Made by a program: the position numbers and the translations under genes. From Candidatus Stammera capleta (GTDB lineage: Bacteria > Pseudomonadota > Gammaproteobacteria > Enterobacterales > Enterobacteriaceae), in the NCBI GenBank assembly GCA_036689335.1, contig CP144796.1:10338-74337 (forward strand): DNA of 64,000 bases, written 5' to 3'. Below are positions 1 to 64,000 of the stretch, in pieces (the stretch's first letter is position 1; the number at the start of each line of letters is the position of its first letter). The notes below the pieces were generated by a model. That model was not told the DNA's origin and ran no database searches. It saw only the letters and a list, made by a program, of their open reading frames with translations.

Positions 1-1
1 T

Positions 2-334
2 CATCGTATTGGTAGAACAGGCAGAGCTAATAAAATTGGTAAGACAATTTTATTTATTAATTTTAAAAATAAAAGGTTTTTATTTCATTTAGAAAGACAT
101 ATAAAAATTAAAATTAAACAAATTAGTATCCCAGATAGAAATTTTTTAATAAATCATCGTATAAATAAATTAATTTTTTTAATTAAAAAAAAATTCAATA
201 ATAAGAAGAAAGGTATTTTTTTTTATAAAAATATGTTAAGTAAAATTATAAAAATTTCAAGTATGAATAATGAAGAAATTAGTATTTCTTTATTAAGTAT
301 AATTTATAAAAAATTATATTTAGATTTTTTTTAA
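2..334 (+). CDS. deaD: DEAD-box RNA helicase DeaD, C-terminal part (5' end outside window)
   Basis: Frame is open from the window edge and begins HRIGRTGRA (helicase motif VI). The tail ...LERHIKIKIKQISIPD... resembles the E. coli DeaD region after motif VI. TAA at 332-334. Confidence 0.8.
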   Translation, partial: HRIGRTGRANKIGKTILFINFKNKRFLFHLERHIKIKIKQISIPDRNFLINHRINKLIFLIKKKFNNKKKGIFFYKNMLSKIIKISSMNNEEISISLLSIIYKKLYLDFF

Positions 335-336
335 AA

Positions 337-408
337 TAGGTGATAATGGAATTGAACCATTGACCTTCTCCTTGTAAAAGAGACACTCTACCACTGAGCT
401 AATCACCT
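337..408 (-). tRNA. tRNA-Val (anticodon UAC)
   Basis: Cloverleaf on the minus strand with acceptor AGGTGAT/ATCACCT and anticodon loop TTTACAA. Close to E. coli tRNA-Val(UAC). No encoded CCA. Confidence 0.9.
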
Positions 409-412
409 TTAA

Positions 413-762
413 TGGAACTGGCGGGATTTGAACCCGCGTCCAAAACAACTTATTCTTTTGATCTACATGTTTATTCTATTTTATTTTTATTAATTATTAA
501 AAATAAAAAAAATTAATAATTAATTAGTTTACTATATAAATTTTTTATAGATGTAAACTTCTATAAAATTTCTCTTTTTAGAAACATTTTTTATATAATA
601 AAAGAGAAAAAATTATTATAAAAAATGGCTTATACAGTTTTTTAAGCTGCTAAAGCATAGTTTTTATTTTTTGCAACTAAATTTTACGGTTTTTTACGCG
701 GCCAACCGTACCTCGACATGCACATTAGAATTTGTATATTTTGTCAAATCCAAAACAGTCCC
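413..762 (-). ncRNA. ssrA: tmRNA (SsrA)
   Basis: The minus-strand 5' GGGACTGTTTTGGATTTGAC...GTGCATGTCGAGGTACGGTTGGCCGCGTAAAAAACCG and 3' ...GGACGCGGGTTCAAATCCCGCCAGTTCCA align with the E. coli tmRNA termini. The acceptor has a G3:U70 pair. An internal tag ORF is present. Confidence 0.93.
642..674 (-). other. tmRNA tag-peptide reading frame (AKNKNYALAA, stop TAA)
   Basis: GCA AAA AAT AAA AAC TAT GCT TTA GCA GCT TAA sits in the position equivalent to the E. coli ANDENYALAA tag. The upstream TAGTT-GCA resume context is conserved. Confidence 0.85.
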
Positions 763-1224
763 TTATATATTATAAGGTTTAAATATTTTTAAATCAATAT
801 TTTTATTTAATTTTTTATTTTCTTTTTCTTTAATATATTTTTTTTTATCATATTTTTTTTTACCTTTTGATAATCCTATAATTATTTTATATCATGGTTT
901 TTTAAGAATTAGAGAAATTAGTATTAATGTGTATCCTTTAATTTTAATTTTATTATAAATTGAATTTATTTCTTTTTTTTTTAGAAGAATTTTAATTTTT
1001 CTTGTTTTTGAAGTATTTTGGTAATTTTTTTGTATTGGATTTATTTTAGTTCCTATTAGATAGGGTATTTTATTTTTTTTTATTTCAATATAACTATTAT
1101 TTATATTTATATTTTTATATTTTATTGATTGTATTTCTCATCCATATAGAATTATACCTGCTTGATATTTTTTTATTATTGTATAATATTGAAATATTTT
1201 TTTGTTTTTTAATATAGTAATCAT
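763..1224 (-). CDS. smpB: SsrA-binding protein SmpB
   Basis: 153-aa frame MITILKNKK..AGIILYGWEIQSIK..TRKIKILLKKKEINSIYNKIKIKGYTLILISL..GLSKGKKKYDKK matches SmpB. It has two in-frame TGA (1138-1140, 892-894) at conserved Trp. The standard-code ORF track misses it. Confidence 0.9.
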
Positions 1225-1357
1225 TTTAAAATTTTATTTATATAAGTTTTTATTGTTTAATTATTTTAATTTAAATATTTTTAAAAAATAAAATTATTTT
1301 GTGATATATAATAATTATTATTATACTATTGACATTAAATTTTGGAGATAAAATAAT

Positions 1358-1978
1358 ATGATTGAAGAAAATAATAATAAAAAAAATAATTCAGATAAAA
1401 TTAATAATGATCTTACTTTAGATAAGAAAATAGATAAAAATATTTTAGAAAAATTAACTAATAAAATATATAAATATAAAAAAGAAATATGTTTTAAAAA
1501 TAAATTAATTAATAAGTTAAAAAATAATTTATTAGATGTTAAAAAAAGAATAGAAGATATAAATTTACGTTCTAAAGCAGAATTAGATAATATGTACAAA
1601 CGTAATCAAGCAGATATTGAAAATGTGTATAAATATTCTTTAGAAAAATTTTTTAAAAATCTTTTACCCGTTATAGATAATTTAAAAAATGCTCTTAAAT
1701 CTAGTAAAAATAAAAATTTAGATAATGTTATTACTTATGAAGGTATTAAATTAACTTTAAAAAATTTTTTGTCTATAATAACAAAATTTGGTGTTTCTAT
1801 AATAAATAAAGTTAATGTAAATTTTGATCCTAATTTTCATCAAGCTGTATCAGTAATTGAATCTGAGAATAAAGATTATAAAGATAATTTAGTTGTTGAA
1901 ATTTTACAGGATGGATATTTACTAAATAATAGATTATTAAGACCAGCAATGGTAAAAGTTATTAAATTTAAAAAATAG
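1358..1978 (+). CDS. grpE: Nucleotide exchange factor GrpE
   Basis: 206-aa ORF with GrpE C-terminal signature ..FDPNFHQAVSVIES..VVEILQDGYLLNNRLLRPAMVKV. Confidence 0.9.
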   Translation: MIEENNNKKNNSDKINNDLTLDKKIDKNILEKLTNKIYKYKKEICFKNKLINKLKNNLLDVKKRIEDINLRSKAELDNMYKRNQADIENVYKYSLEKFFKNLLPVIDNLKNALKSSKNKNLDNVITYEGIKLTLKNFLSIITKFGVSIINKVNVNFDPNFHQAVSVIESENKDYKDNLVVEILQDGYLLNNRLLRPAMVKVIKFKK

Positions 1979-2028
1979 AGAATAATTTTGTTGTATTAAA
2001 ATTATTTTTTTGTTAAAATCTTGATATT

Positions 2029-2100
2029 GGCCCTTTAGCTCAGAGGCAGAGCAGGCGACTCATAATCGCTTGGTCATTGGTTCGAATCCAATAGGGGCCA
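2029..2100 (+). tRNA. tRNA with CAU anticodon, most like tRNA-Ile2 (lysidine-modified)
   Basis: GGCCCTTTAGCTCAG..GCAGGCGACTCATAATCGCTTGGTC.. is nearly identical in its arms to my recollection of E. coli ileX. It lacks the initiator features (no GGG/CCC anticodon stem). No encoded CCA. Confidence 0.7.
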
Positions 2101-2107
2101 TATCTTT

Positions 2108-2797
2108 TTATTTAAGATAGAATTTATTTTTTACTTTCATTTTTTTTGTAAATTCATAAATTAAAGGTATTCCTGTTGGAATATTAAGTTTAACAATATC
2201 TTTGTCAGATATTTTATCTAAATATTTAATTAATGCTCTTAAAGAATTTCCATGTGCTACTATTAGTATAGATAAATTATTTTTTATTTTTGGATAAATA
2301 TTTTTTTTTCAATATGGAATTACTCTATTATATGTATCAAGTAAACTTTCTCCTAAAGGTATTTCTTTATATTTAAGATCTTTATATTTAATTTCTTTAC
2401 CTGGAAATTTTTCGCTTTTACAATCAATTTGTGGTGGTTTAGTAGTATAACTTCTTCTTCATTCTAAAACTTTTTTTTCACCATATATTTCAGCAATTTT
2501 TTTTTTATTATATCCTTGTAAATTTCCATAATGTCTTTCGTTTAATTTTCAAGTTTTAGTAACTTTTATTCATGATAAATTTAATTTATCTAATATTTTT
2601 CATAAAGTATGTATAGATCTTTTTAAAAAAGATGTATATGCATATTCAAAATTGAAATTATTTTTTTTTAGAATAGTACCTGCATTTTTTGCTTCAGTAA
2701 TTCCTTTTTTAGATAAATCTATATCTTTTCATCCTGTAAATATATTTTTTTGATTTCATTTACTTTCTCCATGTCTTATTAAAACTATTTTTTTCAT
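2108..2797 (-). CDS. gpmA: 2,3-bisphosphoglycerate-dependent phosphoglycerate mutase
   Basis: Hand translation [40 protein letters not shown]...[13 protein letters not shown]. About 7 in-frame TGA=Trp. AGGAGA Shine-Dalgarno 8 nt upstream of the ATG. Length is divisible by 3. Confidence 0.9.
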
Positions 2798-2934
2798 TTT
2801 AAATGTCTCCTAATTTATTTTTTATTTTAAATATATTTCTATATATTATATTGTATATATATTATGAATAATATAAACAAAATATTTGTTTATTTTAAAT
2901 ATCTTATATTTGAAATTTTTTAAATATATTTATA

Positions 2935-3303
2935 TTATTTTTTACAATTTTTATTTGCTAGTGTAATTTTTTTTAATAATTTATGTTTTTTAATGTTAAA
3001 TTTATCGTGTTTAAAAAATATTTTTGATAAATATCTAATATTTGTTTTTTTTTTTAATTCTTTTTTGATATTTTTTTCTGATTTTTGTAAATATTTAATT
3101 ATATTTTTTATTATATTAATATTTTTTTGATTTATAAAATCTATATATATATAAATATGTGAAAAATTTTTTGTTAATTTTATATAATTAATACTTAAAA
3201 TATTTTTTTTACCTATTATAAAATTGTATTTTTCAAAAATTATTTGTGTAATTTTTGTTTTTATTTTTTTAATATTTTTTTTATATTTTATTTTAATTTT
3301 CAT
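2935..3303 (-). CDS. rbfA: Ribosome-binding factor A
   Basis: 122-aa ORF directly downstream of infB (E. coli order) with an RbfA-like core ..ILSINYIKLTKNFSHIYIYIDF... Overlaps the infB 3' end by 11 nt. Confidence 0.8.
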   Translation of the reverse strand: MKIKIKYKKNIKKIKTKITQIIFEKYNFIIGKKNILSINYIKLTKNFSHIYIYIDFINQKNINIIKNIIKYLQKSEKNIKKELKKKTNIRYLSKIFFKHDKFNIKKHKLLKKITLANKNCKK

Positions 3304-5092
3304 TTTTTATTATTTTAATACATTCTATAGTATCTCCTATTTTTATTTTATTAAAATTTTTTATGTGTATTCCACATTCAATATTTTTTTTAATTATCAC
3401 AACTTTTTTTTTAAATCTTTTTAATGATTTAATTTTACCTTCATAAATAATATTTTTATTTCTTATAATTTGAATTGGATAAGATATTTTAATACTACCT
3501 TTATTTACTATACATCCTATTATTATATCTAATTTGGATTTATTAAAAATATTTTTTACCTTTGCTTTTCCTACCGTTATTTTATTAGAATATTGAAATG
3601 TTTTTTTTATAATTTTTTTTATTTTGTTAATTAGTTTATATATTATATTAAAAAAATATATTTTTATTTTATATTTTTGTATTTTTTTTTTAATTAAATT
3701 ATTTATTTTAGTATTAAATGAAATTATTATAGATTGAGTTGTTTTTGATAATATTATATCGTTTTCGTTTATTTCACCTATTTTAGCAGAAATTATATTG
3801 ATTTTTTTTTTAAAATTTTTATTTATTAATTTTAATATTGTATCTAATGATCCATATACATCAGTTTTAATTAATATATTTATTTTTTTTTTTTTTTGAA
3901 ATATATTCTCTGTTTTATTTGTGTATATTTTTTTTTTTGAAATTATTTTTTTATTTTTTAAATTAACTATTTTTTTTATTATTTTTTTATTTTTAACTAC
4001 TATGAATTTTTCTCCTGGTATAGGTATTTTAGATAGTCCTAAAATTTCTACAGGCATAGATGGTAGACCATAATTTATTTTTTTATGATTATCGTTACAT
4101 ATTGATTTTATTTTTCCAAATATATTGCCAGATAAAATTATATCCCCTATATTAAGTTTTCCATCTTTTATTAATATATTTGTAATAATTCCTTTATTTT
4201 TGTTTAAGCTAGATTCTATAATAAATCCAGATGCATATTTATTTATGTTAGTATTTAAATTAATATTTTTACTTTCTTTATTTATAGCTTTAAAAATTTT
4301 TTTTATACCTTTAGATGATTTAACTGAAAATTCTACAAAAATATTTTTTCCGCCTCATTCTTTAGGAATTATGTTATATTTACTAATTTTTTTTTTTATA
4401 ACATCAATATTATTATGATAATTTATTTTATCTATTTTAGATAATCCAATTATTGTAGGTATATTATATTTTTTAATATGTTTAATTATTTCTAATGTTT
4501 GTGGCATTATACCATCATCTATAGATATTATTAATAATATTATATCTGTTATATTCATTCCTCTATTTCTCATATTAGTAAATACTGAGTGTCCAGGAGT
4601 ATCTAACAAAGTTATTTTTCCAAATTTATTATTTATATAATAAGCATTTATATATTGTGTAATATTACCTTTTTCTTGATCAACTATTTTACTTGATTTT
4701 ATATAATCTATAAGTGATGTTTTACCATGGTTTACATGACCCATAATAGTTATTATGGGAGGTCTTACATATAGTTTATTTTTTTTTTTATTTAAAATAT
4801 TTTTTTTTTTTAGTTTTATTTTTTCTAATTTTATTTTTTTATTTATATCTTGAACATTTTTTTTTATTTTTTTATTTTTATTTTTTATTTTTTTACTTTT
4901 AAATAGTTTGTTTTTTTTTCTGGTGAATTTTTTATAATTTTTATTGAAAATACTTTTTTTTTTAAAAAATCCTATTTTTTTTTTATTTTTTAATTTATTT
5001 CTTTTTTTTATATTGTTGGTTTTTTTTTTTGTATAAAATATATTTTTTTTTTTACTTTTTTTGTATTTATTTTTATTTATTTTTTTAAACAT
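3293..5092 (-). CDS. infB: Translation initiation factor IF-2 (N-terminally shortened, Lys-rich N-terminus)
   Basis: Two track ORFs (3293-4057, 4355-5092) are in one frame, joined through TGA 4355-4357 in EWGGKNIFVEFS. G-domain MGHVNHGKTSLIDYI, DTPGH and C-terminal PVEILGLS are present. Confidence 0.93.
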
Positions 5093-5125
5093 TTTTTTAT
5101 AAAATAATATTTGTTTATTTAATTA

Positions 5126-6157
5126 TTAATTTTTTATACTAATAATATTTAGTGCTCATCCTGTTAATTTTGATGCTAATTTTATGTTTTGTCCATTTTT
5201 ACCTATAGTTTTAGCTAAATTTTTTGTTTTTACATTTATATCCATTGTTTTGTTTTTTTTATTAATCAATATATTTGATATTTTTGCAGGTAATAAAGAG
5301 TTTATAACAAATTTTTTGGGATTATTATTTCATAATATTATATCTATTTTTTCACCAGATAATTCATTAGATATTAATTGTATTCTTGAACCTTTTAAAC
5401 CTATGCATGCACCTATTGGATCTATATGTTTATTATTAGTATTTACTGCTATTTTAGATCTTAATCCTGGTTTTCTTGATATAGCTTTAATTTTTATGAT
5501 TTTTTTTTTAATTTCTGGTATATTTTTTTTTAATAATTCTAGTAGAAATTTTTTTTTTGTTCTAGTAATGAAAATTTTATATTTTTTTTTTATTTTTTTT
5601 ATTTTATATATTATTCCTTTAATTTTTTTACCTATTTTAAATTTATCATTTTTTATTGAATCTTTTTTTAGAAGTATTACTTTTAAATTAAATTTAATAT
5701 TTATTGATATAGATTTTCTGTTTATTTTTTTTATGTGTCCTGTTATTATTTGACCTTTTTTTTGTTTTATTTTTTTTAAAATAATTATTTTTTTAATTTC
5801 ACGTATTTTTTGTATTATAATTTTTTTTGCTTTTTGTGTTGTTATTCTATCAAAAATTTCTAATTTAATTTTATTTTCTATAATATCTCCTATTTTAATG
5901 TTTTTATTTTTGTGAATGGCTTTTTTATATGTAATTTCTTTATATGGTTTTTTTATTTTTTTAACTACTATTCATCTTCTATATGTATTAAAAGTACCTT
6001 TTTTTCGGTCTATATTAATTTTTATATCTATTTTTTTATTATATTTTTTTTTTATTGCTATAGTTAAAGCTTTTTCTAATGTTTTGAATATTATTTCTTT
6101 TGGTAAAGATTTTTCATTTGATACAGCTTCTGCAACTGCTAAAATTTCTTTATTCAT
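5126..6157 (-). CDS. nusA: Transcription elongation factor NusA (lacks C-terminal AR1/AR2 repeats)
   Basis: N-terminus [31 protein letters not shown] is near-identical to E. coli NusA. TGA at 5972-5974 is the conserved W. The protein ends ..[24 protein letters not shown] after KH2. 343 aa. Confidence 0.92.
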
Positions 6158-6334
6158 TCTAGCTGCCTCAATTATATTTATAAAATAAAGGATATAGATA
6201 TTTGAAATATAAATATTATTTTATTTTAGAAGTTTATTAAATAATTATTATTAATAGTTAATTTAAATTTAATAAATTAATTTATTATATATTAGAAGAA
6301 TGAAATTTTAAAATTTTATTATTATATATTTATT

Positions 6335-6417
6335 TACCGGGAACGGGACTCGAACCCGTATTTTCATAAGAAACTATCTCCTCAAGATAGTGTGTTTACC
6401 AGTTTCACCATCCCGGT
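6335..6417 (-). tRNA. tRNA-Leu (anticodon GAG)
   Basis: Long-variable-arm tRNA with acceptor ACCGGGA/TCCCGGT and anticodon stem-loop CTATC-TTGAGGA-GATAG. It sits just downstream of secG, as leuU does in E. coli. Confidence 0.88.
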
Positions 6418-6472
6418 ATAAAAATTGTTTTTTGTAAAATATTAAGTATAAAAGTTTTTTAATATTTATATA

Positions 6473-6694: not shown

Positions 6695-6746
6695 ATTTAT
6701 CCTTTAAAAATTGATTAAATTTAAATAATTTTTTATAAAAATTTTT

Positions 6747-8540: not shown

Positions 8541-8561
8541 ATAGTTTAATAATATTTAATT

Positions 8562-9172
8562 TTAATTATATTTAAAGTATAATGCAATTATATATATTTC
8601 TTTAGAAAAATTACGTGAAGATTTTAATTTTTTAATTTTTACGATTTTAAATAGTTTTTTAATTTTTTTTATAGTATAAGAAAATATTTCACTTAAAAAA
8701 ACTTTTATAACCAAATTTCCTTTTTTTTTAATTTTTTTTTACATAAATTTAAAATTGTTTTTATTATTTTTTTAAATTTAGGATTATCTATTTCTTTTAT
8801 TCCTGATATATTAGGAGATATATCAGATAAAATATTGTTTATTTTATATCGAGATGTTTTTTTAATTATTTTATTGAAAATTTTTTTTTTACATATATTT
8901 CCTAATATAAAAATTGTTTTTAAATTTTTATTTATAGGTTTTATATCACAACTAAAAATTTTACCTGTATTTTTTATTTTTTGAGTTAAAAATTGTGTTC
9001 AACCTCCAGGTGAGCATCCTAGATCTATTATATTATCTTGTTTCTTAATTATATTGAAATTTAAATTTATTTCCTGTAATTTAAATCATGATCTAGAAAT
9101 TATTTTGTTCTTTTTTTTTAAATTTATATATTTATCATTTATATGAATATTAATTCATTTTTTTTTTTTCAT
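8562..9172 (-). pseudogene. rlmE: 23S rRNA U2552 2'-O-methyltransferase RlmE/FtsJ, interrupted by a 1-nt frameshift in an A9 tract
   Basis: The N-terminal part (frame of 9172) gives ..RSRSWFKLQEI..DLGCSPGGWTQ..LSDISPNISG... The C-terminal part ..GNLVIKVFLSEIF..KIKKLKSSRNFSKEIYIIA is in the other frame. The switch lies in the T9-A-A-T9 block at 8721-8740, and the uninterrupted frame stops at 8705-8707. Confidence 0.75.
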
Positions 9173-9205
9173 TTTTTTATTTTAGATATTTAATATTGAA
9201 TATAT

Positions 9206-9676: not shown

Positions 9677-9781
9677 ATATTTTCCTTAGTTTTATTTTAA
9701 AATATATTATTAATATCATAATATTAAATTATTTATTTAATATTTTAAATAATTTTATGTTTTAAAATAAGAATTTGTATT

Positions 9782-10571: not shown

Positions 10572-11621
<1,050 letters not shown>

Positions 11622-14389: not shown

Positions 14390-14779
14390 ATGTGATATAT
14401 AGTTGATGCAAAAAAAAAAATATTAGGTAGATTGGTTAGTAAAATAATACCAATATTAATTGGTAAAAATAAATCTAATTATTTACCTCATGTAGACAAT
14501 AGTGATTATATTATAATAATTAATGCTAGTAAAATATTAGTTACTGGAAATAAATTAAAAAATAAAAAATATTATTTTCATAGTGGTTATGTAGGAGGAA
14601 TTAAAGTTATTTCATTTATTGATATGTTAAAAAAATCTCCGGAATTTATTATTAGACATGCTGTTAAGGGCATGTTGCCTAAAAATGTTTTGTCTAGAAG
14701 AAAATTAAAAAAATTAAAAATATATTCTAATAGTGAATATAAAGAATATGCTCAAAAACCTGTATTAATTAATATTTAG
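14390..14779 (+). CDS. rplM: 50S ribosomal protein L13 (short N-terminus)
   Basis: ATG 14390 followed immediately by TGA (W): [19 protein letters not shown].. aligns with E. coli ..DWYVVDATGKTLGRLAT... The remainder is track ORF 14432-14779. Confidence 0.9.
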
Positions 14780-17756: not shown

Positions 17757-18083
17757 ATGCGTCATTATGAAATTGTGTTAATGATTTATCCTAATAAAAG
17801 TTTATATGTATCAGATATAATTAAATATTATTCTAAAATTATAAATATTAGTAATGGTAAAATACATAGATTAGAAGATTGAGGATTACGATATTTATCT
17901 TATTCTATTAAAAAGTGTTATAAAGCACATTATATATTAATGAATATAGAGGTTAGTGTTTATTATATAAATAAATTAAAAATTGATTTTAAATTAAATA
18001 CTAATATATTAAGATATTTAATTATTAAAAAAAAAAAATCTATATCTACTGATTCTTATATGAAAATTAAAAATATGAACTAA
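17757..18083 (+). CDS. rpsF: 30S ribosomal protein S6
   Basis: MRHYEIVLMIYPN..IHRLEDWGLRYLSYSIKK..AHYILMNIE with one TGA=Trp at the conserved EDWG. Missed by the standard-code track. Confidence 0.93.
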
Positions 18084-18106
18084 TTATATAATTTAAAGGT
18101 TTTAAA

Positions 18107-18334
18107 ATGTTTAAATTTAATAAGAGAAAAAAATATTGTCCTTATAGAGGTAAAAAAAATCATGATATTGATTATAAAAATTTAGATTTATTAAAAAATT
18201 ATATTACAGAATGTAATAAAATAATTCCTAGTAGGATTACAGGTATTTCTATAAAATATCAAAGGTTAATATCTAAATCTATAAAACGTGCTAGATATTT
18301 ATCTTTATTAGCTTATACTGATTTGCATAAATAA
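18107..18334 (+). CDS. rpsR: 30S ribosomal protein S18
   Basis: 75 aa, ..[24 protein letters not shown]...KYQR.....[10 protein letters not shown]. Confidence 0.95.
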
Positions 18335-18971: not shown

Positions 18972-20534
<1,563 letters not shown>

Positions 20535-20551
20535 TTATAATAGTAGGAATT

Positions 20552-20569
20552 TGTAGGTGCTCATATAAA
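20552..20569 (+). promoter_or_regulatory. 3' arm of the 16S precursor processing stem
   Basis: TGTAGGTGCTCATATAAA pairs with 18888-18905. Confidence 0.8.
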
Positions 20570-20596
20570 TTATTTATTTAGATTTAAATAATTTTA

Positions 20597-20668
20597 GTCC
20601 TTTTCGTCTAGAGGTTAGGACATCGCTCTTTCACGGCGACAACAGGGGTTCGAATCCCCTAGAGGACG
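20597..20668 (+). tRNA. tRNA-Glu (anticodon UUC) in the 16S-23S spacer
   Basis: GTCCTTTTCGTCTAGAGG..CTTTCACGGCG..GGGGTTCGAATCCCCTAGAGGACG is near-identical to E. coli tRNA-Glu. No encoded CCA. Confidence 0.95.
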
Positions 20669-20709
20669 TTTCTTTAAAAATTGATTTTCGAAACATTTTT
20701 AAGTTGTGA

Positions 20710-23638
<2,929 letters not shown>

Positions 23639-23662
23639 CACAACTTAAAAATGTTTTAAAAT

Positions 23663-23782
23663 ATTCTGGCGGTAATAGCATGATTGTACCACCTGAATCC
23701 ATTCCGAACTCAGAAGTGAAAGGTCATAGCGCTGATGGTAGTGTAGGTTTTTCTTATGTGAGAGTAAGACACTGCCAGAATA
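23663..23782 (+). rRNA. rrf: 5S ribosomal RNA
   Basis: ..TCTGGCGGTAATAGC..CCACCTGAATCCATTCCGAACTCAGAAGTGAAA..GCGCTGATGGTAGTGT..GAGAGTAAGACACTGCCAGAAT aligns with E. coli 5S. Confidence 0.95.
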
Positions 23783-23788
23783 TTTTTT

Positions 23789-23862
23789 GGTGCGGTAGTT
23801 CAGTTGGTTAGAATACCAGCCTGTCACGCTGGGGGTCACGGGTTCGAGTCCCGTTCGTACCG
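23789..23862 (+). tRNA. tRNA-Asp (anticodon GUC)
   Basis: GGTGCGGTAGTTCAGTTGGTTAGAATACCAGCCTGTCACGCTGGGGGTCACGGGTTCGAGTCCCGT.. is near-identical to E. coli tRNA-Asp. It is distal to 5S, as in rrnC-type operons. Confidence 0.95.
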
Positions 23863-23898
23863 AATATTTTAATATTAAATCAGAAAATTTTTATATTT

Positions 23899-24477
23899 AT
23901 GTTTTTATGTAAAAGTAATTTAATTTGAATAGATTTAGAAATGACAGGTTTAAATCCTGATAAAGATAAAATATTAGAAATAGCTACTTTAGTTACAGAC
24001 AGTAATTTAAATATTCTTTCTGAGGGACCTAATATAGTTTTAGGTCAAAAAGATAAATATTTGAATAATATGGACGGTTGAAATTTAAAAGTTCATTCTT
24101 ATACTGGTTTAATTAATAAGGTTAAAAAAAGTTCTATTAATGAAATTGAAGCGGAATTTAGAATTATAAATTTTTTAAAAAATTGAGTACCTAAAGGTGT
24201 TTCTCCTATTTGCGGTAATACTGTAGGTCAAGATAGAAGATTTTTATTTAGATATATGCCTAATTTAGAATCTTATTTTCATTATAGGTATATAGATGTT
24301 AGTACTATAAAGGAATTAGTTAAAAGATGATTTATAGATGTCAAAGTATTTTTTAATAAAAAAAAATATCATAGTGCTATGTTAGATATTAAAAATTCTG
24401 TATGTGAATTATCGTATTATCGTAATAATTTTTTTAATTGTAATATTTGCGGAAATAGCTCAGTTGGTAGAGTATAA
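23899..24477 (+). CDS. orn: Oligoribonuclease Orn (3' end runs 29 nt into tRNA-Gly)
   Basis: [77 protein letters not shown] is collinear with E. coli Orn. 4 TGA=Trp. The first in-frame TAA is at 24475-24477. Confidence 0.92.
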
Positions 24478-27417: not shown

Positions 27418-28358
27418 AAAATGATATTTCAAAAATTTTCTGTATTTTAGGTCCAACTGGTATAGGGAAAAGTTATATAGCAATGGAATTAAGTAAAATT
27501 CTTCCTGTGGAAATTATTAGTGTAGATTCTGGTTTAATATATAGAGATTTAAATATTGGTACAGCTAAACCTAGTAAATTAGAATTAAAATATTTTCCTC
27601 ATAGATTAGTTAATATTATTAATCCTAATGATTTTTATTCAGTAAAAAATTTTATTTTAGATTTGATAAAAGAATTATATGATATTATTTACATTAAAAA
27701 AAAAGTACCTTTATTAGTTGGAGGTACTATGATGTATTTTAATGTTTTATTTAATGGATTATATTTATTACCTGAATCTAATTATAAAATACGTAATTAT
27801 ATAAATTTTTTATTTTCTAAATATGGTAGTGATTTTATTTTAAATATTTTAAGAGTAATTGATTTTATTTCATATAAAAAAATTCATTTTAATGATAAAT
27901 ATAGAATTATACGTAATTTAGAAGTTTTTTTAACTACTGGAAAAAATATTTCATATTTTAAAAGACATAGAAAATTGATTTTAAATTTTGATATATATAA
28001 AATTATTATTATACCTAATGATAAAAATAATTTAGTAACTTTAGTTAAAAATAGATTTTATAATATGTTATATCTAGGTTTAGAAGATGAGGTGTTTAAT
28101 TTATATTTACGAAATGATTTAAATTTAAATAGTTCTTTTATGAAATGTATTGGATATAAACAAATGTGATTATATATTGATAAAAAAATTTCTTATTCAG
28201 AAATGATAGAAAATACTATTCGTAGTACGTTATATTTAATAAAAAAACAATTGATTTGATTAAGAAAATGAACTAATAGTTTTATAATTAAAAATAATGA
28301 TTGTAAAAAAAAAGTTATTGATATTTTCAATTATATTAAAAAAATAATTAATTATTAA
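27408..28358 (+). CDS. miaA: tRNA dimethylallyltransferase MiaA
   Basis: ..FCILGPTGIGKSYIAMELS..VEIISVDSGLIYRDLNIGTAKPS. The frame continues through three TGA to TAA 28356-28358. Overlaps the mutL 3' end by 10 nt. Confidence 0.9.
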
Positions 28359-28368
28359 GGGTGTTTAT

Positions 28369-29658
28369 TTGTTTGATTTTAAGAAAATAGAAAAAGTTTT
28401 AGGAATATATATATATTTTAATAAAAAAAATATTATTAATAAAAATGAATTTAAAAAATTAATTTTTTCTGCTGGTTTTTATATAGATAAATTATTAGAA
28501 ATAAATATTAGATATCCTAATAAAAAATATTTTTTAGGTTTAGGTAAAATTAAAGAAATTATTTTAATTATTAAAAAATTTAATTTTTCTAAAATAATAA
28601 TCAATTTAGTTCTTAAGAGTACTCAAGAATATAATTTAAAAAAAATATTTAAATGTTACATTTTAAATAGAACTAATTTAATATTAGATATATTTAAAAA
28701 TAGAGCTGTAACTAATTATGGAAAACTTCAAGTAGAATTAGCTTATTTAAATTATTTAAGCACTCGTTTAATTAAAAGATGAGATCATTTAGAACGTCAA
28801 AAAGGAGGAACTAAAAATATTTCTGGTCCAGGAGAAACACAAATTGAAATTGATAGAAGATTAATAAAAAAGAGAATAAAATTTATAAATAAAAAAATAT
28901 TAAAAATAACTAATCAAAAAAGTAGTAATATTAAATTTAGAAATAAATATAATATTCCTATAGTTTCTTTAGTTGGTTATACTAATTCTGGAAAATCAAC
29001 ATTATTTAATTTATTAACTAATTCTAATTTAGAATTAGGTGATAGTTATTTTTCTACTTTAGATACTTATATTAGAAAAATTAATATTTTTAAATTTAAT
29101 TCTAATGTTTTAGTTTCTGATACTATAGGTTTTATAAGAAATTTACCTAAAAATATTAAAAGTGCTTTTAAAGGAACTTTAAGTGAAATTTCTTATTCTC
29201 ATCTTATATTACATATTATTGATGTATCTAATTTATATTTTAAAAATTATATTGATGTTGTTAATTCTATATTGGATGATTTAAATATAAATAATTCTAT
29301 ACCTATAGTACAGGTAATGAATAAAATAGATAAAATTAAAAAATATAATATTAAAATAGATTTTAAAGATAATCTACCTATTAGAATATGAATATCTGCT
29401 AAGAAAAGAATTGGTATAAATTTTATATATACATTAATTAATTTTTATTTATTTTCTGATAGAAGAAAATATTTATTATGTATTCCTTTAAAATTTTCTA
29501 TTTTTATAAGAAATATTTTATATAAAAATAATATTTTATTTAAAGAATGGAGCAAAGATGGTAAGTTATTTTATTTTGATATTTTAGTTTCTAAAGTAAG
29601 ATTTTTATATATTTTAAAAAAGTATTCTTATATAGAAAAATATTTAATTAATAAATAA
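28369..29658 (+). CDS. hflX: GTPase HflX
   Basis: TTG start is inferred, as there is no in-frame ATG near the 5' end. ..LQVELAYLNYL.TRL...W.HLERQKGG....GPGETQIEIDRR.., G1 GYTNSGKSTLFN, DTIGFI and NKID are present. TGA=Trp at 28780-28782 and 29390-29392. Confidence 0.88.
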
Positions 29659-32714: not shown

Positions 32715-33185
32715 ATGTCACGTCGTAAGAGAATAAATAATCGTATTATAATTCCTGATTATATTTATAATTCAGAATTAGTTATGAAATTTATTAATCT
32801 ACTTATGTTAAATGGTAAAAAATCTATTGCAGAAAATATTTTATATACTTCTTTAAATATATTAGAAAAAAAAATTAAAAAGGATAAATTAGATTCATTA
32901 GAATTAGCTATTAATAATGTTAAACCTATTGTAGAAGTTAAATCTCGTAGGGTTGGAGGTACTACTTATCAGATACCTGTAGAAGTTAGACCTAAAAGAA
33001 GTAATACTTTAGCTATACGTTGAATTATATTATCAGCTAAAAAAAGATCTAAAAAAAAAATGTTTTTAAAATTAGCTGAAGAATTACTAGATGCTATTAA
33101 TAAAAAAGGATTTGCTATTAAAAAACGTGATGAAACACATCGTATAGCAGAATCTAATAAAGCATTTGCTCATTATAGATGATAA
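32715..33185 (+). CDS. rpsG: 30S ribosomal protein S7
   Basis: Track ORF 32715-33023 continues through TGA (33021-33023) to ..[11 protein letters not shown] with TGA 33180-33182 then TAA. AGGAG Shine-Dalgarno upstream. Confidence 0.95.
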
Positions 33186-33211: not shown

Positions 33212-35341
<2,130 letters not shown>

Positions 35342-42852: not shown

Positions 42853-43158
42853 ATGACTAGAAAATCAATTATAGAACGTGAAAAAAAAAGGTCTTATTTA
42901 ATTAAAAAATTTTATTTTAAAAGAAAAAGATTGAAAAAAATTATATCTAGTGATAAAACTTCTAATAAAAATAGGTGAAAAGCTATTGTTAAATTACAAT
43001 CTTTACCTAGAAACTCAAGTATTGTACGTCATCATAATAGATGTAAATTAACAGGTAGACCTCATGCTTATTTACGTAAATTTGGTTTAAGTAGAATTAA
43101 GTTTCGTGAATTTGCTGTTATGGGATATATACCTGGATTAAAAAAATCTAGTTGATAA
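42853..43158 (+). CDS. rpsN: 30S ribosomal protein S14
   Basis: [59 protein letters not shown]. The terminal W is TGA 43153-43155, followed by TAA. Confidence 0.94.
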
Positions 43159-44524: not shown

Positions 44525-45028
44525 ATGATTAAATCTAATAATAATAATGAGTTTTATGAAAAATTAGTTTCTGTAAATAGGGTTTCTAAAACAGTTAAAG
44601 GAGGTAGAGTTTTTTCTTTTACAGCTTTAACAGTAGTAGGAGATAAAAATGGTAAAATTGGTTATGGATATGGTAAAGCTCGTGAAGTTCCTTTAGCTAT
44701 TCAGAAAGCTATAGATAAATCTCGTAAAAATATGATATTTATTTTATTAAATAAAAGAAAAACTATAAGATATGAATTAAAAAGCACATATGTAAGTACA
44801 AAAGTTTTTATTAAACCAGCTTCAGAAGGTACGGGTATTATTGCTGGTAAAACTATGAGAGCTATTTTTGAAGCTGTTGGAATTAAAAATGTTTTAGCTA
44901 AATTATATGGTTCTAGTAATCCTTTAAATGTTATAAAAGCAACTATTAAAGCTTTACAAAGTATTAAATCTCCTCTTTATATAGCTAAAAAAAGAGGTAA
45001 ATTTTTAAAGGAAATATTTGTATTTTAA
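44525..45028 (+). CDS. rpsE: 30S ribosomal protein S5
   Basis: 167 aa, ..[48 protein letters not shown]. Confidence 0.97.
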
Positions 45029-45055
45029 TTTCAAAATTTATATTTGGTTAAATTG

Positions 45056-45487
45056 ATGGTTATTTATTTAAATAATTTGTTAAGTAATGTTAAAAAAAAA
45101 GTTAAAAAAAGAGTGGGTAGAGGTATAGGTTCTGGTTTAGGAAAAACTTGTGGTAAAGGACATAAAGGTCAGAAATGTAGATCTGGAGGTAAAATTAGAA
45201 GATGTTATGAAGGTGGTCAAACTCCATTTTATAGGAGAATACCTAAATTTGGTTTTAAAAATTTTAACTCTAAGAAAATATTTCAATTACGTATTTGTGA
45301 TTTAAATATATTTAATGATAATAGTTTAATAAATTTAAAAAAATTAAAATCTAAGAAATTAGTTCCTTTGAGAGCAAAATTAGTTAAAATAATATTAAAT
45401 GGTAAGTTTAAAAGAAAAAATATTAGATTTAGTAATAAAAATATAAAATTTTCTTCTGGTGTAAATAAAATTATTAAAAATAAATAA
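45056..45487 (+). CDS. rplO: 50S ribosomal protein L15
   Basis: ..[48 protein letters not shown] 45056 chosen within track ORF 45044-45487. Confidence 0.93.
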
Positions 45488-48422: not shown

Positions 48423-49436
48423 ATGTTTACTACATTAGAATTTATTAAACCTAAGTTAGTTAATATAGAAAATATATCTAAAACATGTTCTAGATTAGTT
48501 TTAGAACCTTTAGAAAAAGGTTTTGGTTATACATTAGGTAATGCTCTTAGACGTGTTTTATTATCTTCTATATCTGGTTATGCAGTTACAGAAGTAGAAA
48601 TTGATGGTGTATTACATGAATATAGTGTAAAAAATGGTTTATTAGAAGATATAATAGAAGTTCTTTTAAATTTAAAAAAATTATCTATTAAATTAGATGA
48701 TGATAGAGAGGAAGCTATTCTTTATTTAAATAAAAGTGGTTTAGGTCCAGTTTTAGCATCTGATTTGACTTGTGATCATAATTTTTATTTAGTTAATCCT
48801 AATCATGTTATTTGTAATATTACTGATGCAAATATTTCTATCAATATGCGTATTTATATTAACCTGGGAGTAGGATATGAATCTGCTTCTTCTAGAATTA
48901 GAAATATTAAAGAAGTAAATAAAAATATAAAAGTAGGTAAATTATTTTTAGATGCTTATTATTCTCCTATAGAACGTATTTCTTATAAAGTTGAATCAAC
49001 TCGTTTAAAACAACGTATAGATTTAGATAAATTGATTATTGATGTTTATACTAATGGTACTATAAAACCTGAGTTTGCTATACGTAGAGCAGCTAAAATT
49101 TTAGTTGATCAGTTAAGTTCTTTTATAAATTTAGATGATAAAAGTATTAAAGAAGTAAAAAAAAGTAAATTACCTTTTGATCCTATATTATTATCTTTAG
49201 TTGATGATTTAGAACTTACTGTAAGATCAGCAAATTGTTTAAAAGCTGAATCTATTCATTATATAGGTGATTTAGTTCAAAAAACTGAAATAGAATTATT
49301 AAAAACTCCTAATTTAGGTAAAAAATCATTAACTGAGATAAAAAATGTTTTACTTTCTAAAGGATTAACTTTAGGTATGAAAATAAATAATTGAGATAAT
49401 AATATTTTATCAAAAAATAATTTTAAAAAAGGTTAA
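48423..49436 (+). CDS. rpoA: DNA-directed RNA polymerase subunit alpha
   Basis: [58 protein letters not shown]... ..[49 protein letters not shown]=Trp at 49392-49394, TAA 49434-49436. Confidence 0.97.
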
Positions 49437-55017: not shown

Positions 55018-55021
55018 TTTT

Positions 55022-56176: not shown

Positions 56177-56179
56177 ATT

Positions 56180-57250: not shown

Positions 57251-57251
57251 A

Positions 57252-59045: not shown

Positions 59046-59169
59046 AATATTTATTAGTTATTAACTTTTAATATAAATTATAATATATAAATTGATAATT
59101 TAAATAAAAATGATATTATATATATAAATTTAATTTTTTATTTATTATTTAAATAATTTAATATATTTT

Positions 59170-60837
59170 ATGTTTAAGAATCCTATAAAAACCAAATATT
59201 GATGTAAATTAAATGATCATTATTTATCTATTAAAGATAAAGAAATTTTTGATTTGTTTAAAGAAGATAAAGAAAGATTTAGTAATTTTTCTATTAATTA
59301 TAGAAATAAAATTTTAGTAGATTTTTCTAAAAATCGTATTGTATTAAAAACTTTAGATTTATTTTTTGGTTTATTAGAAGAAATTAATTTTAAAAATTAT
59401 ATTTTTTCTATGTTATCTGGAGAAAAAATAAATTTTACAGAAAATAAACCTGTTTTACATTTTTTATTGAGAGATAGAAAAAATGTTTTTTTAAATAAAA
59501 ATTCAGATTTTATAGATATTAAAAAAGATATAGATACAAATTTAAATAAAATAAAGTTTTTTACAGATAAAATATTAAATGGTGAGTGATTAGGTTTTTC
59601 AGGTAAAAAAATTATTAATATAGTTAATGTTGGTATAGGTGGATCTGATATAGGTCCTCGTATGATTATAAATGCTTTATCTTTATATAAAAATAGTGAT
59701 ATAAAGATGTATTTTATATCTAACATAGATTCTACTGATATTATAAAAGTTTTAAATAAATTAAATCCTGAAAATACTCTTTTTATAGTATGTTCTAAAA
59801 CATTTACTACTTTAGAAACTTTAAATAATGCTAACATTTTACGTAAATGAATATTAAATTTTTATAATAATAAAGAAAAGTCTTTAAATTATCATTTTAT
59901 ATTAGTATCAAGTAATTTTACTGAATCAGTTAAATTTGGGGTAAATTTGAATAATATTTTTATTGTTCATAATTGAGTTGGTGGAAGATATTCGTTTTGT
60001 TCTGCTTTTGGTATATCTATTTCTTTAGCTATAGGTTTTAATAATTTTATTAAATTATTAGATGGAGCTCATGATATGGATGTTCATTTTTTTAATGAAG
60101 ATTATTTGAATAATATACCAATAGTTTTAGCTATAATAAGTATTTGATATAATAATTTTTTTAATTTTAGTACTGAAGCAGTATTAGCTTATAATGAAAA
60201 TTTATTTTATTTACCTATTTATTTACAGCAACTTGTTATGGAATCTAATGGAAAATATGTAGATTATAATGGTAATTATATAAATAAGTATAATACATCT
60301 CCTATTATATGAGGAGGAACAGGAACTGTATCTCAACATTCTTTTTATCAATTATTACATCAGGGTACATATATTGTACCTTGTGATTTTATAGCTGAAA
60401 TTAAAAATATTAATAACATTAATGATTCTCATTTTAAATTGATGTCTAATTTTATTTCTCAGACTCAATCGTTAGCTTTTGGAGATAAAATATTTAAAAA
60501 TAATAATTTTAATAATTATAATAGTTTAAATAAATTTACTCAATTTAAAGGTAATCGTCCTACTAATACTATTCTAATTAAAAAAATTAATCCTTATACT
60601 TTGGGATTATTAATATCTTTATATGAACATAAAGTTTTTACTCAAGGAATAATTTTAAATATATGTAGTTTTGATCAATGAGGTGTAGAATTAGGTAAAA
60701 AATTATCTAATGTATTATTACCTTATTTAGGTAAAAATAATATTTTAAAAAATAAAAATTTTAAAAAAAATATTTATTTAGATAATTCTACATTGAATTT
60801 AATAAATTTTTTTAATAAATATTGTGTTAAAAAATAA
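59170..60837 (+). CDS. pgi: Glucose-6-phosphate isomerase
   Basis: 555-aa single frame, with track ORFs joined by 6-7 TGA=Trp. ..NVGIGGSDIGPRM.., ..FIVCSKTFTT.ET.., ..WVGGRYS.., ..QQL.MESNGK.., ..WGG.GT..QHSFYQL.HQG.., ..FDQWGVELGK. Confidence 0.95.
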
Positions 60838-60851
60838 CTTTTATAAATAAA

Positions 60852-61127
60852 ATGGCAAATAATAAATCTTCTAAAAAAAGAATTTTAATAAATAAATTAA
60901 GAAATAGAAATAATATAAGTAAAAAATCTATGTTAAAAACCTATATAAAAAAATTTAAATTATCTATAAAAAATAAAAATAAAAAATCAGTTATAATTTA
61001 TTATACTTTAATACAATCTCTATTAGATAAATTATCTTCTAAAAAAGTTATACATTTTAATAAATCTTCTAGATATAAATCTAGTTTATCTAAATTAATG
61101 AATTTTTTTTTAAAGAATTTTATTTAA
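60852..61127 (+). CDS. rpsT: 30S ribosomal protein S20
   Basis: 91 aa, MANNKSSKKRIL.N..RN..N.S.KSMLKT.IKK. Confidence 0.9.
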   Translation: MANNKSSKKRILINKLRNRNNISKKSMLKTYIKKFKLSIKNKNKKSVIIYYTLIQSLLDKLSSKKVIHFNKSSRYKSSLSKLMNFFLKNFI

Positions 61128-61135
61128 ATTAGTTT

Positions 61136-61915
61136 TTATTTAAATTTATATTTAGAATATAAATTTGTAATTTTACAAAAATTTTTTATAGAAATTTTAT
61201 TAGGTCTTTTATTTAAATTTATATTATTTTTTTTAATTATTTTTTTATTTAAAATATTTTTTAAATTATTTATTATTTTTTTTTTTTTTCTTTTAAATGA
61301 AATATTTAATATATGATTAAGATGTTTAATATTTAAAAGTTTGTATTTTTTTTTTCTAGGTTTTAATATTATAAAAACTGAATTTACTTTAGGTTTAGGA
61401 TAAAAAAATTTATTTTTAATATTCATTAATATTTTGATATTATAAATATATTTTATTAAAATACTAATTTTGCTATATTTTTTATCTCCTTTTTTAGCAA
61501 TTAATAAATCACAAAATTCTTTTTGTATCATTATATGTATATCTTTTATAATTTTAAAATTCTTTATAAATATAAAGAATAATTTTTTAGTTAAATAATA
61601 TGGTATATTACCAAATATTCTAATTTTTTTTTTTTTTTTTAAAAAAAAATTCAAAAAATTAAATTTTAATACACTTATATTAATTAAGTTTATTTTTATT
61701 TTTTTTTTTTTATTTTTTTTTATTAAATATTTATCTATTTCTAATGAAGTTAAATTTTTATTGTATTTAATTATTTTATTTGAAATTTCTCCATGACCAT
61801 AACCTATTTCTATAAAAATGTCTTTTTTTTTTGGTTTAATAAATTTAATTATTTTTTTGATTATTGTTTTGTTTTTTAAAAAAACTTGTCCTAAACTATT
61901 TTTTATTTTCAACAT
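61136..61915 (-). CDS. rsmA: 16S rRNA (adenine1518/1519-N6)-dimethyltransferase RsmA/KsgA
   Basis: 259 aa, ..LGQVFL.N...I.KI.......D.FIEIG.G.G..S.. ..IFGNIPYY. Confidence 0.88.
   Translation of the reverse strand: MLKIKNSLGQVFLKNKTIIKKIIKFIKPKKKDIFIEIGYGHGEISNKIIKYNKNLTSLEIDKYLIKKNKKKKIKINLINISVLKFNFLNFFLKKKKKIRIFGNIPYYLTKKLFFIFIKNFKIIKDIHIMIQKEFCDLLIAKKGDKKYSKISILIKYIYNIKILMNIKNKFFYPKPKVNSVFIILKPRKKKYKLLNIKHLNHILNISFKRKKKKIINNLKNILNKKIIKKNNINLNKRPNKISIKNFCKITNLYSKYKFK
61624..61640 (-). repeat. A17 homopolymer (minus strand) inside rsmA (encodes L-KKKKK-I), preceded by T9
   Basis: Direct count of 17 T on the plus strand, followed by 9 A. In frame within rsmA. Confidence 0.95.
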
Positions 61916-62036
61916 AATATTTTTATATATGTAAATATTTTAAAATAAATTTAATATTATTGATAGTATATATGTTATACTTAAATAAGTATTTTAATAT
62001 ACATTTTTAATTTTTTTTTGAAATTATTTTACTAGT

Positions 62037-62768
62037 ATGCAATGATATTTTAGGTATTTGATAATTAAACATATATATATAGCTTATTTTTTGATTTTTT
62101 TAGTTTCTTTATTTGAATCATTAGCTTTTTTGGGTTTTTTAATACCTAGTAGCATGATTATGTTTTTGATAGGTTTTTTTATAGGTAAAGGTAATATAAA
62201 TTTTTATTACTCGTATATTTTAGTGGTTTTAGGTTGTACTTTAGGGGATATAATTTCTTATTATATTGGAAAATATTTAAAAGATTATTTATTTTATTTT
62301 CGAAAAAAAATATCTAATTATATAAATATTTTTGAAAATATATTTAAATATTTTAAAAAAAATTCTTCTTTTGTAATTGTATCTAGTAAATTTACTGGAC
62401 CAGTAAAATCATTTTTTTTTTTTATTTCTGGTATGTTAGAAATATCTCTTCAAAAAATTATTTTACCTAATTTTTTAAGTATTTTATTATGGTCTATTTC
62501 TTTTTTTATACCTGGTATGTTATCTGGTGTAGCAGTTACTTTACCTAATAGTTTTTTATTTAGAACACATTTATTTAGTTTTATATTTTTATTAGTTTTA
62601 GATATTTATATTTTTTGTAAGTGATTAAACAAAGATTTTTTAAATAAAAATTTATCTAGATTTTTTTTAATTGTTTTTTTATGTTTATGTATGAAACATT
62701 TATTAATTATAATTAATGATAATATTTTTAGTATTTTTATGAAATTAATGTTTAAGTTATTTTTTTAA
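62037..62768 (+). CDS. DedA-family inner-membrane protein
   Basis: ATG 62037 then CAA TGA(W): MQWYFRYLIIKH..LVSLFESLAFLGFLIPSS.. ..GCTLGDIISYYIGKY.. is typical DedA/SNARE-associated. A second TGA at 62622-62624 extends the frame to TAA 62766-62768. Confidence 0.65.
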
Positions 62769-62771
62769 TTT

Positions 62772-64000
62772 TTACATAAACTTTCTTTTCTCTCCTTTAC
62801 CTATAAGATTATTAATACATCTTTTACATATATTAGGATATTTTTTATTTGTATTTATATTATATACATAATGTCAACATCTTTTACATTTAATACCTTT
62901 ATGTTTTTTACATTTAATTTTGAAAAAATTATTTTTGTTTAATTCTGAATTAGATTTTATTTTTAATTCTGAAGTTATAAAAAAAAATTTTAATTCTGAT
63001 TTCATTTTTTCTATTTTTTGAAAAAAATTTTTTTCTAAATATAAAATTATTTTTGTTTCTAAAGTAGAATTAATTTTTTTTTTTAATCTAATTTTTTCTA
63101 TTTTTTTATTCAAATGATTTTTAATTTTTATTAATTTTTTTCAAATATTAATATTTATATTATTATTTTTATGTATATAAAATAATTTTTTATATCATGT
63201 TTCAGTATATATTGAAAAAGATTTTTTTCTAGTAACATAACTGTATATTTCTTCTACGGTAAAGGATAATATAGGAGTAATTCATTTTATTAATGTTTCA
63301 AGTAATATTCATAAAGTAGTTTGTACACTTAAATAAGGTAGAGTATTTTTTTTTATTGTATATTTTCTATCTTTAATAATATTTAAATAAATTGAACTTA
63401 GATAAATTACACAAAAATTAAGTATTTTTTTTGTAACTTTATAAAATTTAAATTTTTCGTATAGTTGGATTATTTTTTCTTGTGTTTTTTTAGCTTTATG
63501 TATAATTCATTTATCTATTAATAATATTTTAGAAGGTTTAATTAGTTGTTTTTCAAAGTTATATATATCTAAATTAGAAATTATAAATTTTATAGTATTT
63601 CTTATTTTTCTATACATTTCACTAGTTCTTAAAATTATATCATTAGATATATGTATTTCTTTAGTAAATTTAGTGGATGCTACTCATAGTCTTAATATAT
63701 CTGCTCCAAATTTATTTATTATTTCTTTAGGATTTATATAATTATTTAATGATTTAGACATTTTTTTTCCTTTTTCATCTACTATAAATCCATGCGTTAC
63801 TATTTTTTTATATGGAGCGCAATTATTAATTGCAGTACTAATTATTAATGATGACATAAATCATCCTCTATATTGATCTGATCCTTCTAAATATAAATCT
63901 ATTTGTTTTTTTTTATTTTTATTAAATTTAGGATTCATAATTGTAAAACATGTTGATCCTGAATCAAATCATACATCTAGTACATCCAATATTTTAATAT
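62772..64000 (-). CDS. ileS: Isoleucine--tRNA ligase, C-terminal part (5' end outside window)
   Basis: Minus-strand frame from the window edge: ..DVLDVWFDSGS.. [15 protein letters not shown].. [22 protein letters not shown].. GADILRLWVAS.. C-terminal zinc finger ..[25 protein letters not shown]. At least 8 TGA=Trp. Confidence 0.95.

Follow-up and report, generated by a model that had tools for sequence, protein, structure and literature searches.

Gene content and identity of the window

The window analysed here, the whole 64,000-nt stretch of contig CP144796.1 from Candidatus Stammera capleta, has a G+C content of 20.5%, and its main subject is the codon UGA which, judged from the sequence, is with certainty decoded as tryptophan (Trp) throughout. 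Stammera is an extracellular foregut symbiont of leaf beetles of the Cassidinae (tortoise beetles). The gene order is like that of E. coli and comprises smpB, grpE and gpmA; rbfA-infB-nusA, secG, ftsH, rlmE and greA; rpmA-rplU, mreBCD, tldD, rplM-rpsI and mutS; rpsF-rpsR-rplI, the ribosomal RNA (rRNA) operon and orn; amiB-mutL-miaA-hflX, rlmB and fmt-def; the complete str, S10, spc and alpha operons; and alr, glyQS, mnmA, dacA-mrdB-mrdA, pgi, rpsT, rsmA and ileS. Both this order and the taxonomy (Gammaproteobacteria, Enterobacterales) agree with the gammaproteobacterial lineage and E. coli-like synteny proposed by the first-pass annotation, which was made by a model from the sequence alone.

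1..64000: window segment, very probably chromosomal, of Candidatus Stammera capleta, code 4, with 73 protein genes, one rRNA operon, 8 tRNAs and a transfer-messenger RNA (tmRNA)

Relatives were found by a scan with Pgi translated under code 4, taking one genome per GTDB species. The best match was CP144833.1 (Candidatus Stammera capleta, 297,036 bp) at 80% amino-acid identity, followed by CP144793.1 (titled Stammera capleta) at 58% and Wigglesworthia at 52%; at the nucleotide level, a 20-kb piece of the window is collinear with CP144833.1 and 83.3% identical to it across 95% of its length. Three Pgi sequences fall into one cluster at 90% identity; they come from NCBI genomes of 312,107, 310,384 and 308,745 bp. 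The Pgi of the window is 100% identical to that of the 310,384-bp genome (P0282), while the 312,107-bp genome, CP144799.1, is 92.8% identical to the window in nucleotides over 14.8 kb, and a 1.3-kb Logan contig from SRR23946973 matches window positions 734-2055 at 100%. Exact-protein look-ups with KsgA, MreB and Pgi of the window, and with LysS of the 310,384-bp genome, yielded no long contig. The window very likely belongs to the chromosome of a Candidatus Stammera capleta strain that uses code 4, in which UGA specifies Trp and translation stops at UAA or, more rarely, UAG.

As a point of record keeping, CP144833.1 is a complete 297-kb Stammera chromosome that was deposited as ‘plasmid pStChz2’ and carries no annotation in PLSDB, a database in which it sits because of that mislabelling.

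In-frame UGA codons and their alignment to tryptophan

The window was translated with code 4 into open reading frames (ORFs) delimited by TAA or TAG, TGA was masked as X, and the products were compared with their orthologues in E. coli K-12 MG1655, represented by 14 stretches spanning the expected genes; 71 ORFs matched E. coli in the blast comparison, and the per-gene codon counts cover 73 genes. The gene-by-gene list holds approximately 123 in-frame TGA codons as against 9 TGG, such that some 93% of the Trp codons in the window are UGA, and 47 of the 73 genes (64%) contain at least one. A rough hand count of more than 100 sense TGAs in the first-pass annotation is hereby borne out, as is its description of TGG as occasional, although TGG occurs in nine genes and not only in ftsH and glyQ. 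When the masked codons were read against E. coli, 101 of 114 aligned TGAs (89%) fell on Trp, a residue with a frequency of 0.9% among the 16,473 E. coli residues in the alignments (binomial P ~1.5e-190, that is, of the order of ~1e-190); counted in reverse, a Trp of E. coli is matched by TGA in 101 cases and by TGG in 5. The earlier claim that UGA stands for Trp across the whole window is thereby upheld by the very tabulation of aligned TGA columns that had been proposed for checking it. In addition, all nine TGA codons for which coordinates had been quoted (two in smpB and one each in nusA, infB, fusA, ileS, rplM, rpsG and rpsN) lie at those positions, in the frame and context described. The genes concerned, together with others of particular use to the argument, are as follows.

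smpB, 763..1224, minus strand: TGA at 1138-1140 (YGWEIQ) and 892-894; aligns to E. coli SmpB
gpmA, 2108..2797, minus strand: seven in-frame TGA, first bases at 2756, 2729, 2600, 2570, 2549, 2459 and 2309
infB, 3293..5092, minus strand: TGA at 4355-4357, context KEWGG
nusA, 5126..6157, minus strand: TGA at 5972-5974 (TYRRW), also at 5330 and 5156
rplM, 14390..14779, plus strand: begins ATG TGA (14390-14395), codon 2 aligning with the Trp of the E. coli L13 motif DWYVVDA; stop TAG
rpsG, 32715..33185, plus strand: final sense codon TGA (33180-33182), then TAA; C-terminus HYRW
fusA, 33212..35341, plus strand: five in-frame TGA including 33365-33367 (MDWMEQE); 67% identity to E. coli EF-G over 707 residues
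rpsN, 42853..43158, plus strand: final sense codon TGA (43153-43155), then TAA; C-terminus KSSW
rpoA, 48423..49436, plus strand: one TGA at 49392-49394 in the C-terminal tail, context INNwDNN, outside the blast alignment
pgi, 59170..60837, plus strand: seven in-frame TGA
ileS (3' part), 62772..63998, minus strand: nine in-frame TGA including 62874-62876, context CKRCWH

A further five in-frame TGAs are found in glyS. The single TGA of rpoA lies beyond the point at which the blast alignment ended, and we take it to correspond to the Trp that is conserved at the C-terminus of E. coli RpoA.

It could be proposed that the standard code applies and that the TGAs are true stops in a decaying genome rich in pseudogenes, and the genes do look shattered under table 11, where the longest ORF reaches 490 amino acids as against 869 under table 4. 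However, the interruptions are made by TGA only, as none of the 73 genes contains an internal TAA or TAG and a frameshift is present solely in rlmE; the great majority of TGAs occupy conserved Trp positions; the sites are either conserved between strains or exchanged with TGG; and the genes that are hit include the essential, single-copy fusA, tufA, rpoA, secY and ribosomal protein genes, all of which makes decay exceedingly improbable as an explanation. In line with the reassignment, stop-to-stop ORFs of at least 100 amino acids add up to 23,126 amino acids once TGA is opened, instead of 15,219, and opening TAG leaves ORF lengths nearly unchanged. Alternatively, UGA may have been reassigned to a residue other than Trp, such as glycine (code 25), cysteine or selenocysteine, and a precedent exists in the Gracilibacteria and Absconditabacteria, in which UGA encodes glycine (PMC8629427 Table 1). 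However, only 1 of the 114 aligned TGAs lies on glycine and 0 lie on cysteine, compared with the 101 on Trp, and the complete related genome CP144833.1 is without a tRNA carrying the UCA anticodon, which leaves this alternative with a practically negligible probability.

The ends of the genes are equally informative. The 71 ORFs matched to E. coli terminate at TAA (65), TAG (6) or TGA (0), with C-termini that coincide with those of E. coli. That every terminus is TAA or TAG, as had been asserted, is therefore correct, but the list of TAG-terminated genes given with that assertion (mreD, rplF and rpmJ) was incomplete, since grpE, greA, rplM and mutS also end in TAG. For annotation, the consequence is that table 4 is needed, as table 11 would truncate or split 47 of the 73 genes.

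Controls and the ancestral codon

Loci of Buchnera, Wigglesworthia and the basal Stammera CP144793.1 were passed through the same ORF and alignment pipeline as controls. Buchnera (G+C 21%) gave one in-frame TGA with 25 Trp as TGG, Wigglesworthia (G+C 27%) none with 24, and CP144793.1 (G+C 20%) none with 53; because genomes of similar composition thus return only 0-1 in-frame TGA, the signal in the window is not a by-product of A+T richness. Site by site, TGG stands opposite the TGA of the window in 36 of 42 cases for CP144793.1, 13 of 17 for Wigglesworthia and 11 of 14 for Buchnera. The code-4 genome CP144833.1 has 97 TGAs in common with the window, and TGA is swapped with TGG at a further 20 sites; four such swaps separate the window from CP144799.1. 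Since TGA and TGG interchange between strains in this manner, they behave as synonymous codons.

Release factor 2 in related genomes

Evidence on the genes that would underlie the mechanism, those for tRNA-Trp and for release factor 2 (RF2, prfB), comes from the genomes of relatives and from publications, and several points weigh against a reading in which RF2 has been lost and UGA is read as Trp by the tRNA-Trp with anticodon CCA. The prfA/prfB region does not lie in the 64-kb window, nor is a tRNA-Trp found among its 8 tRNAs and tmRNA, such that both RF2 loss and the identity of the tRNA are drawn from elsewhere. A neighbouring code-4 clade (CP144833.1, CP145602.1 and five others) keeps prfB. 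Lastly, 13 of the 114 aligned TGAs lie off Trp, spread across 11 residues and one gap, all in variable regions.

In the sister genomes CP144799.1 and CP144802.1, prfB is absent between pth and lysS, the interval being taken up by an AT-rich spacer of ~160 bp in which no RF2 remnant was found, and prfA is the sole release-factor gene nearby. Among the best RF2 matches, none came from a genome of 308-312 kb. Because both sister genomes of its clade lack the gene, we infer that the genome to which the window belongs would likewise be without prfB. The expectation of an absent or decayed prfB voiced in the first-pass annotation thus holds for the sister genomes, but not for the neighbouring code-4 clade, in which the gene is placed as follows.

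prfB of code-4 CP144833.1, 150934-151965 (L032): between pth and lysS; further loci L038 3001-4080 and L039 389-1384

This prfB is full-length with intact SPF and GGQ motifs, has no programmed (+1) frameshift, and has two conserved Trp positions written as in-frame TGA; across the prfB-keeping code-4 clade, the gene has 2-3 such TGAs. Six further genomes (297-307 kb) encode an RF2 that is 75-81% identical to that of CP144833.1. Between CP144833.1 and CP145602.1, amino-acid identity is 80% for RF2, and since this falls within the 71-87% range of neighbouring genes (prfA 85%, pth 82%, lysS 87%, mutH 71%), prfB looks constrained in this clade rather than decaying. As a code-4 clade thereby retains a conserved prfB, RF2 loss is not a prerequisite for UGA as Trp in Stammera. 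A clade-specific change in the codon-recognition loop of RF2 was sought in the prfB-keeping code-4 clade and gave no clear signal, as SPF is kept, and NPF and H to Q variation also occur outside code-4 genomes. If the RF2 of this clade is functional, either its recognition of UGA has changed with SPF unchanged, or the UGA codons within its gene hold back its production. The basal code-11 genome CP144793.1 keeps prfB as well (P0013).

These observations bear upon the possibility that UGA is ambiguous in the window, that is, mainly Trp, but at the same time the terminator of some genes or in part read by a release factor. The conserved RF2 with SPF motif in the sister clade speaks in its favor, and an intermediate state as in Candidatus Providencia siddallii is conceivable for prfB-keeping Stammera, as that leech symbiont (abbreviated PSAC) keeps prfB and some UGA stops (PMC10540940). 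Furthermore, rpsG and rpsN end in TGA-TAA, where stopping at TGA would cost a single residue. However, every gene of the window can do without TGA as a terminator, the 71 matched ORFs all reaching TAA or TAG at the expected C-terminus, and prfB is deleted in both sister genomes, such that ambiguity in the window is very unlikely.

tRNA-Trp and the ribosome

The only rRNA operon of the window has the layout of E. coli rrnC minus trpT after aspT, with orn directly following tRNA-Asp (window 23788-23899).

rRNA operon, 18972..23863, plus strand: 16S, tRNA-Glu, 23S, 5S, tRNA-Asp

For the tRNA-Trp itself, CP144833.1 was read whole, with tRNAs called by ARAGORN. This is a code-4 genome, 109 of its 128 aligned TGAs lying on Trp; among its 30 tRNAs, ARAGORN found one tRNA-Trp, which has the anticodon CCA, and no tRNA with a UCA anticodon.

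tRNA-Trp(CCA) of CP144833.1, 282311-282385: adjoins tRNA-Ile(GAU), away from the rRNA operon

The tRNA-Trp with UCA anticodon for which the first-pass annotation proposed a search is accordingly not what this genome holds. The companion proposal, that an intact prfB together with a CCA-only tRNA-Trp would speak against the reassignment, is invalid here and would yield a false negative in Stammera, because code-4 Stammera are CCA-only and one code-4 clade retains an intact-looking prfB.

Relative to E. coli trpT, the tRNA-Trp of CP144833.1 carries G24 to A and C25 to U, creating a U11-A24 pair in the D-stem, which also contains G10-U25 and U13-G22. G24A is the classical Hirsh UGA suppressor of E. 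coli tRNA-Trp (PMC11805395), and many bacterial tRNA-Trp genes have A24 (PMC13092985). As A24 is so common in bacteria, the presence of this Hirsh-suppressor state in the Stammera tRNA-Trp is suggestive of an aid to UGA reading and is not diagnostic. By hand reading, the anticodon stem has 5 bp (A27-U43, U28-A42, G29-C41, a G30-U40 wobble and U31-A39), consistent with PMC13092985, which places the Stammera tRNA-Trp(CCA) in the 5-bp class. No ribosomal cause of UGA read-through was apparent, since 16S helix 34 with C1054, the 530 loop, helix 44 and the anti-Shine-Dalgarno sequence are identical to those of E. coli.

Cognate reading of UGA would provide another route, either by an overlooked tRNA-Trp(UCA) gene or by C-to-U editing or modification of C34 in tRNA-Trp(CCA). 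The tRNA-Trp gene of the genome to which the window belongs lies outside the sequence read, which leaves room for this route, but the complete CP144833.1 has one CCA tRNA-Trp and no UCA tRNA, and we know of no cytidine deaminase for tRNA C34 editing in genomes so reduced. Although C-to-U editing of tRNA-Trp is known from Trypanosoma mitochondria (PMC8677022), published surveys find tRNA-Trp(UCA) to be always missing in Stammera (10.64898/2026.05.24.727570; PMC10540940), and cognate reading is considered unlikely.

A model for UGA decoding

The present data allow a model to be proposed by which UGA came to be read as Trp. Strong A+T mutational pressure (G+C 20%) may have turned nearly all ancestral TGG Trp codons into TGA; that such a conversion took place is shown by the correspondence of window TGA to TGG in basal code-11 Stammera, Wigglesworthia, Buchnera and E. 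coli. With RF2 gone from the window's clade, UGA would no longer act as a stop, and RF1 alone would serve UAA and UAG. The sole tRNA-Trp (CCA) could then read UGA by near-cognate pairing of C34 with A at the third position, possibly helped by the U11-A24 pair of the D-stem. This near-cognate route, in which tRNA-Trp(CCA) meets no competition from RF2 at UGA and RF1 acts at UAA and UAG, is the most likely mechanism, and one that is probably correct. It is held with less certainty than the code itself because the tRNA-Trp and prfB evidence comes from relatives and because tRNA editing could still intervene.

Comparison with known systems

The assignment of UGA to Trp in Stammera is correct and already known, having been published since 2017: PMC10540940 and PMC8629427 both cite Salem et al. 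2017 for it. Table 2 of PMC10540940 lists Stammera with prfB absent, a trnW anticodon of CCA and UGA in 62% of coding sequences, the Codetta paper recovers Stammera capleta among the known UGA-to-W cases (PMC8629427 Table 1), and 50 Stammera genomes have been annotated with code 4 (bioRxiv 10.1101/2023.12.12.571295). The reassignment, for which the first-pass annotation called for explicit confirmation, is real but not new, Stammera being already one of the tiny endosymbionts in which it is established. Biologically, the window adds nothing to this established fact. It resembles the known code-4 Stammera in being collinear with them at 83-93% nucleotide identity, in the share of genes with UGA (~64% as against the published 62%), in low G+C and, judged from its relatives, in a CCA-only tRNA-Trp and, as in both sister genomes of its clade, the probable lack of prfB; unlike the GTDB representatives, it comes from a different host-specific strain (Pgi 80% and 58%), and nothing else of substance sets it apart.

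Basal Stammera differ in the code. According to the gTranslate preprint, five basal Stammera genomes use code 11, and code-4 Stammera are always without tRNA-Trp(UCA), with some code-4 assemblies holding prfB (10.64898/2026.05.24.727570). CP144793.1 shares genus, gene order and a similar G+C content (20%) with the window but has no in-frame TGA, TGG accounting for 53 of 53 TGN Trp codons in a 21.7-kb locus (L023, 61483-83144), a result that independently confirms the basal code-11 lineage of the preprint. It is possible, if doubtful, that Stammera present a stage series of stop-codon capture, passing from code 11 with prfB, to code 4 with a UGA-bearing RF2, and to code 4 with prfB deleted, all with one CCA tRNA-Trp that would carry U11-A24. 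The presence of prfB in some code-4 Stammera had been remarked upon in the 2026 preprint; the level of its conservation, its internal UGA codons and the A24 state are added here. The questions that are touched, namely how tRNA-Trp(CCA) can read UGA with good efficiency and how a conserved RF2 is tolerated in some code-4 Stammera, lie beyond the window and have already been flagged in the literature.

Other bacteria have arrived at UGA as Trp with differing machinery. Candidatus Zinderia insecticola (Betaproteobacteria) likewise has tRNA-Trp(CCA) only and no prfB (PMC10540940 Table 2; PMC13092985), although the anticodon stem of its tRNA-Trp has 4 bp, a feature that has been put forward as enabling UGA to be read, in contrast to the 5-bp stem of Stammera (PMC13092985); the two belong to different classes, and each gained the trait on its own. 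UGA as Trp and RF2 loss also go together in Candidatus Hodgkinia cicadicola, Candidatus Nasuia deltocephalinicola and the Mollicutes, but these use a cognate tRNA-Trp(UCA) that Stammera is without (PMC10540940 Table 2). A parallel within the Enterobacterales is PSAC, in which UGA is Trp, tRNA-Trp(CCA) is the only tRNA-Trp and prfB itself carries an in-frame UGA, as in the Stammera clade of CP144833.1 (PMC10540940). PSAC is at an early stage, with UGA in ~20% of genes and some UGA stops, whereas ~93% of Trp codons in the window are UGA and both sister genomes of its clade are without prfB.

Other observations on genes of the window

Measured against the gene order of E. coli, several genes are missing: rpmD (L30) between rpsE and rplO, where 27 bp are left (window 45028-45056); priB between rpsF and rpsR (window 18083-18107); rimP upstream of nusA (window 6157-6334); and truB, rpsO and pnp downstream of rbfA. 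Other products are shortened, with IF2 having 599 amino acids as against 890 in E. coli, its N-terminal region being missing or unalignable (3293-5092), and NusA 343 as against 495, its C-terminal part being missing (5126-6157).

In rlmE (8562-9181, minus strand), the coding sequence is split into two overlapping frames at two A9 runs at ~8705-8740 (GTAAAAAAAAATTAAAAAAAAAGG), and this split represents either a frameshifted pseudogene, a site rescued by transcriptional slippage or a homopolymer assembly error. The frame of hflX has no ATG before approximately codon 320 (window 28348-28420), and the gene therefore has a non-ATG start (ATT or TTG), near or overlapping the end of miaA. The frame of orn runs to a TAA inside tRNA-Gly(GCC), at 24449-24477, its last ~14 codons being unaligned to E. 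coli Orn; as there is no earlier stop, the orn coding sequence and tRNA-Gly(GCC) overlap by 29 nt. Lastly, the tmRNA (410-762, minus strand) adjoins smpB and encodes the tag AKNKNYALAA, that of a related strain being AKNNNYALAA, and the two genes lying side by side mean that trans-translation is retained in a genome of ~310 kb.

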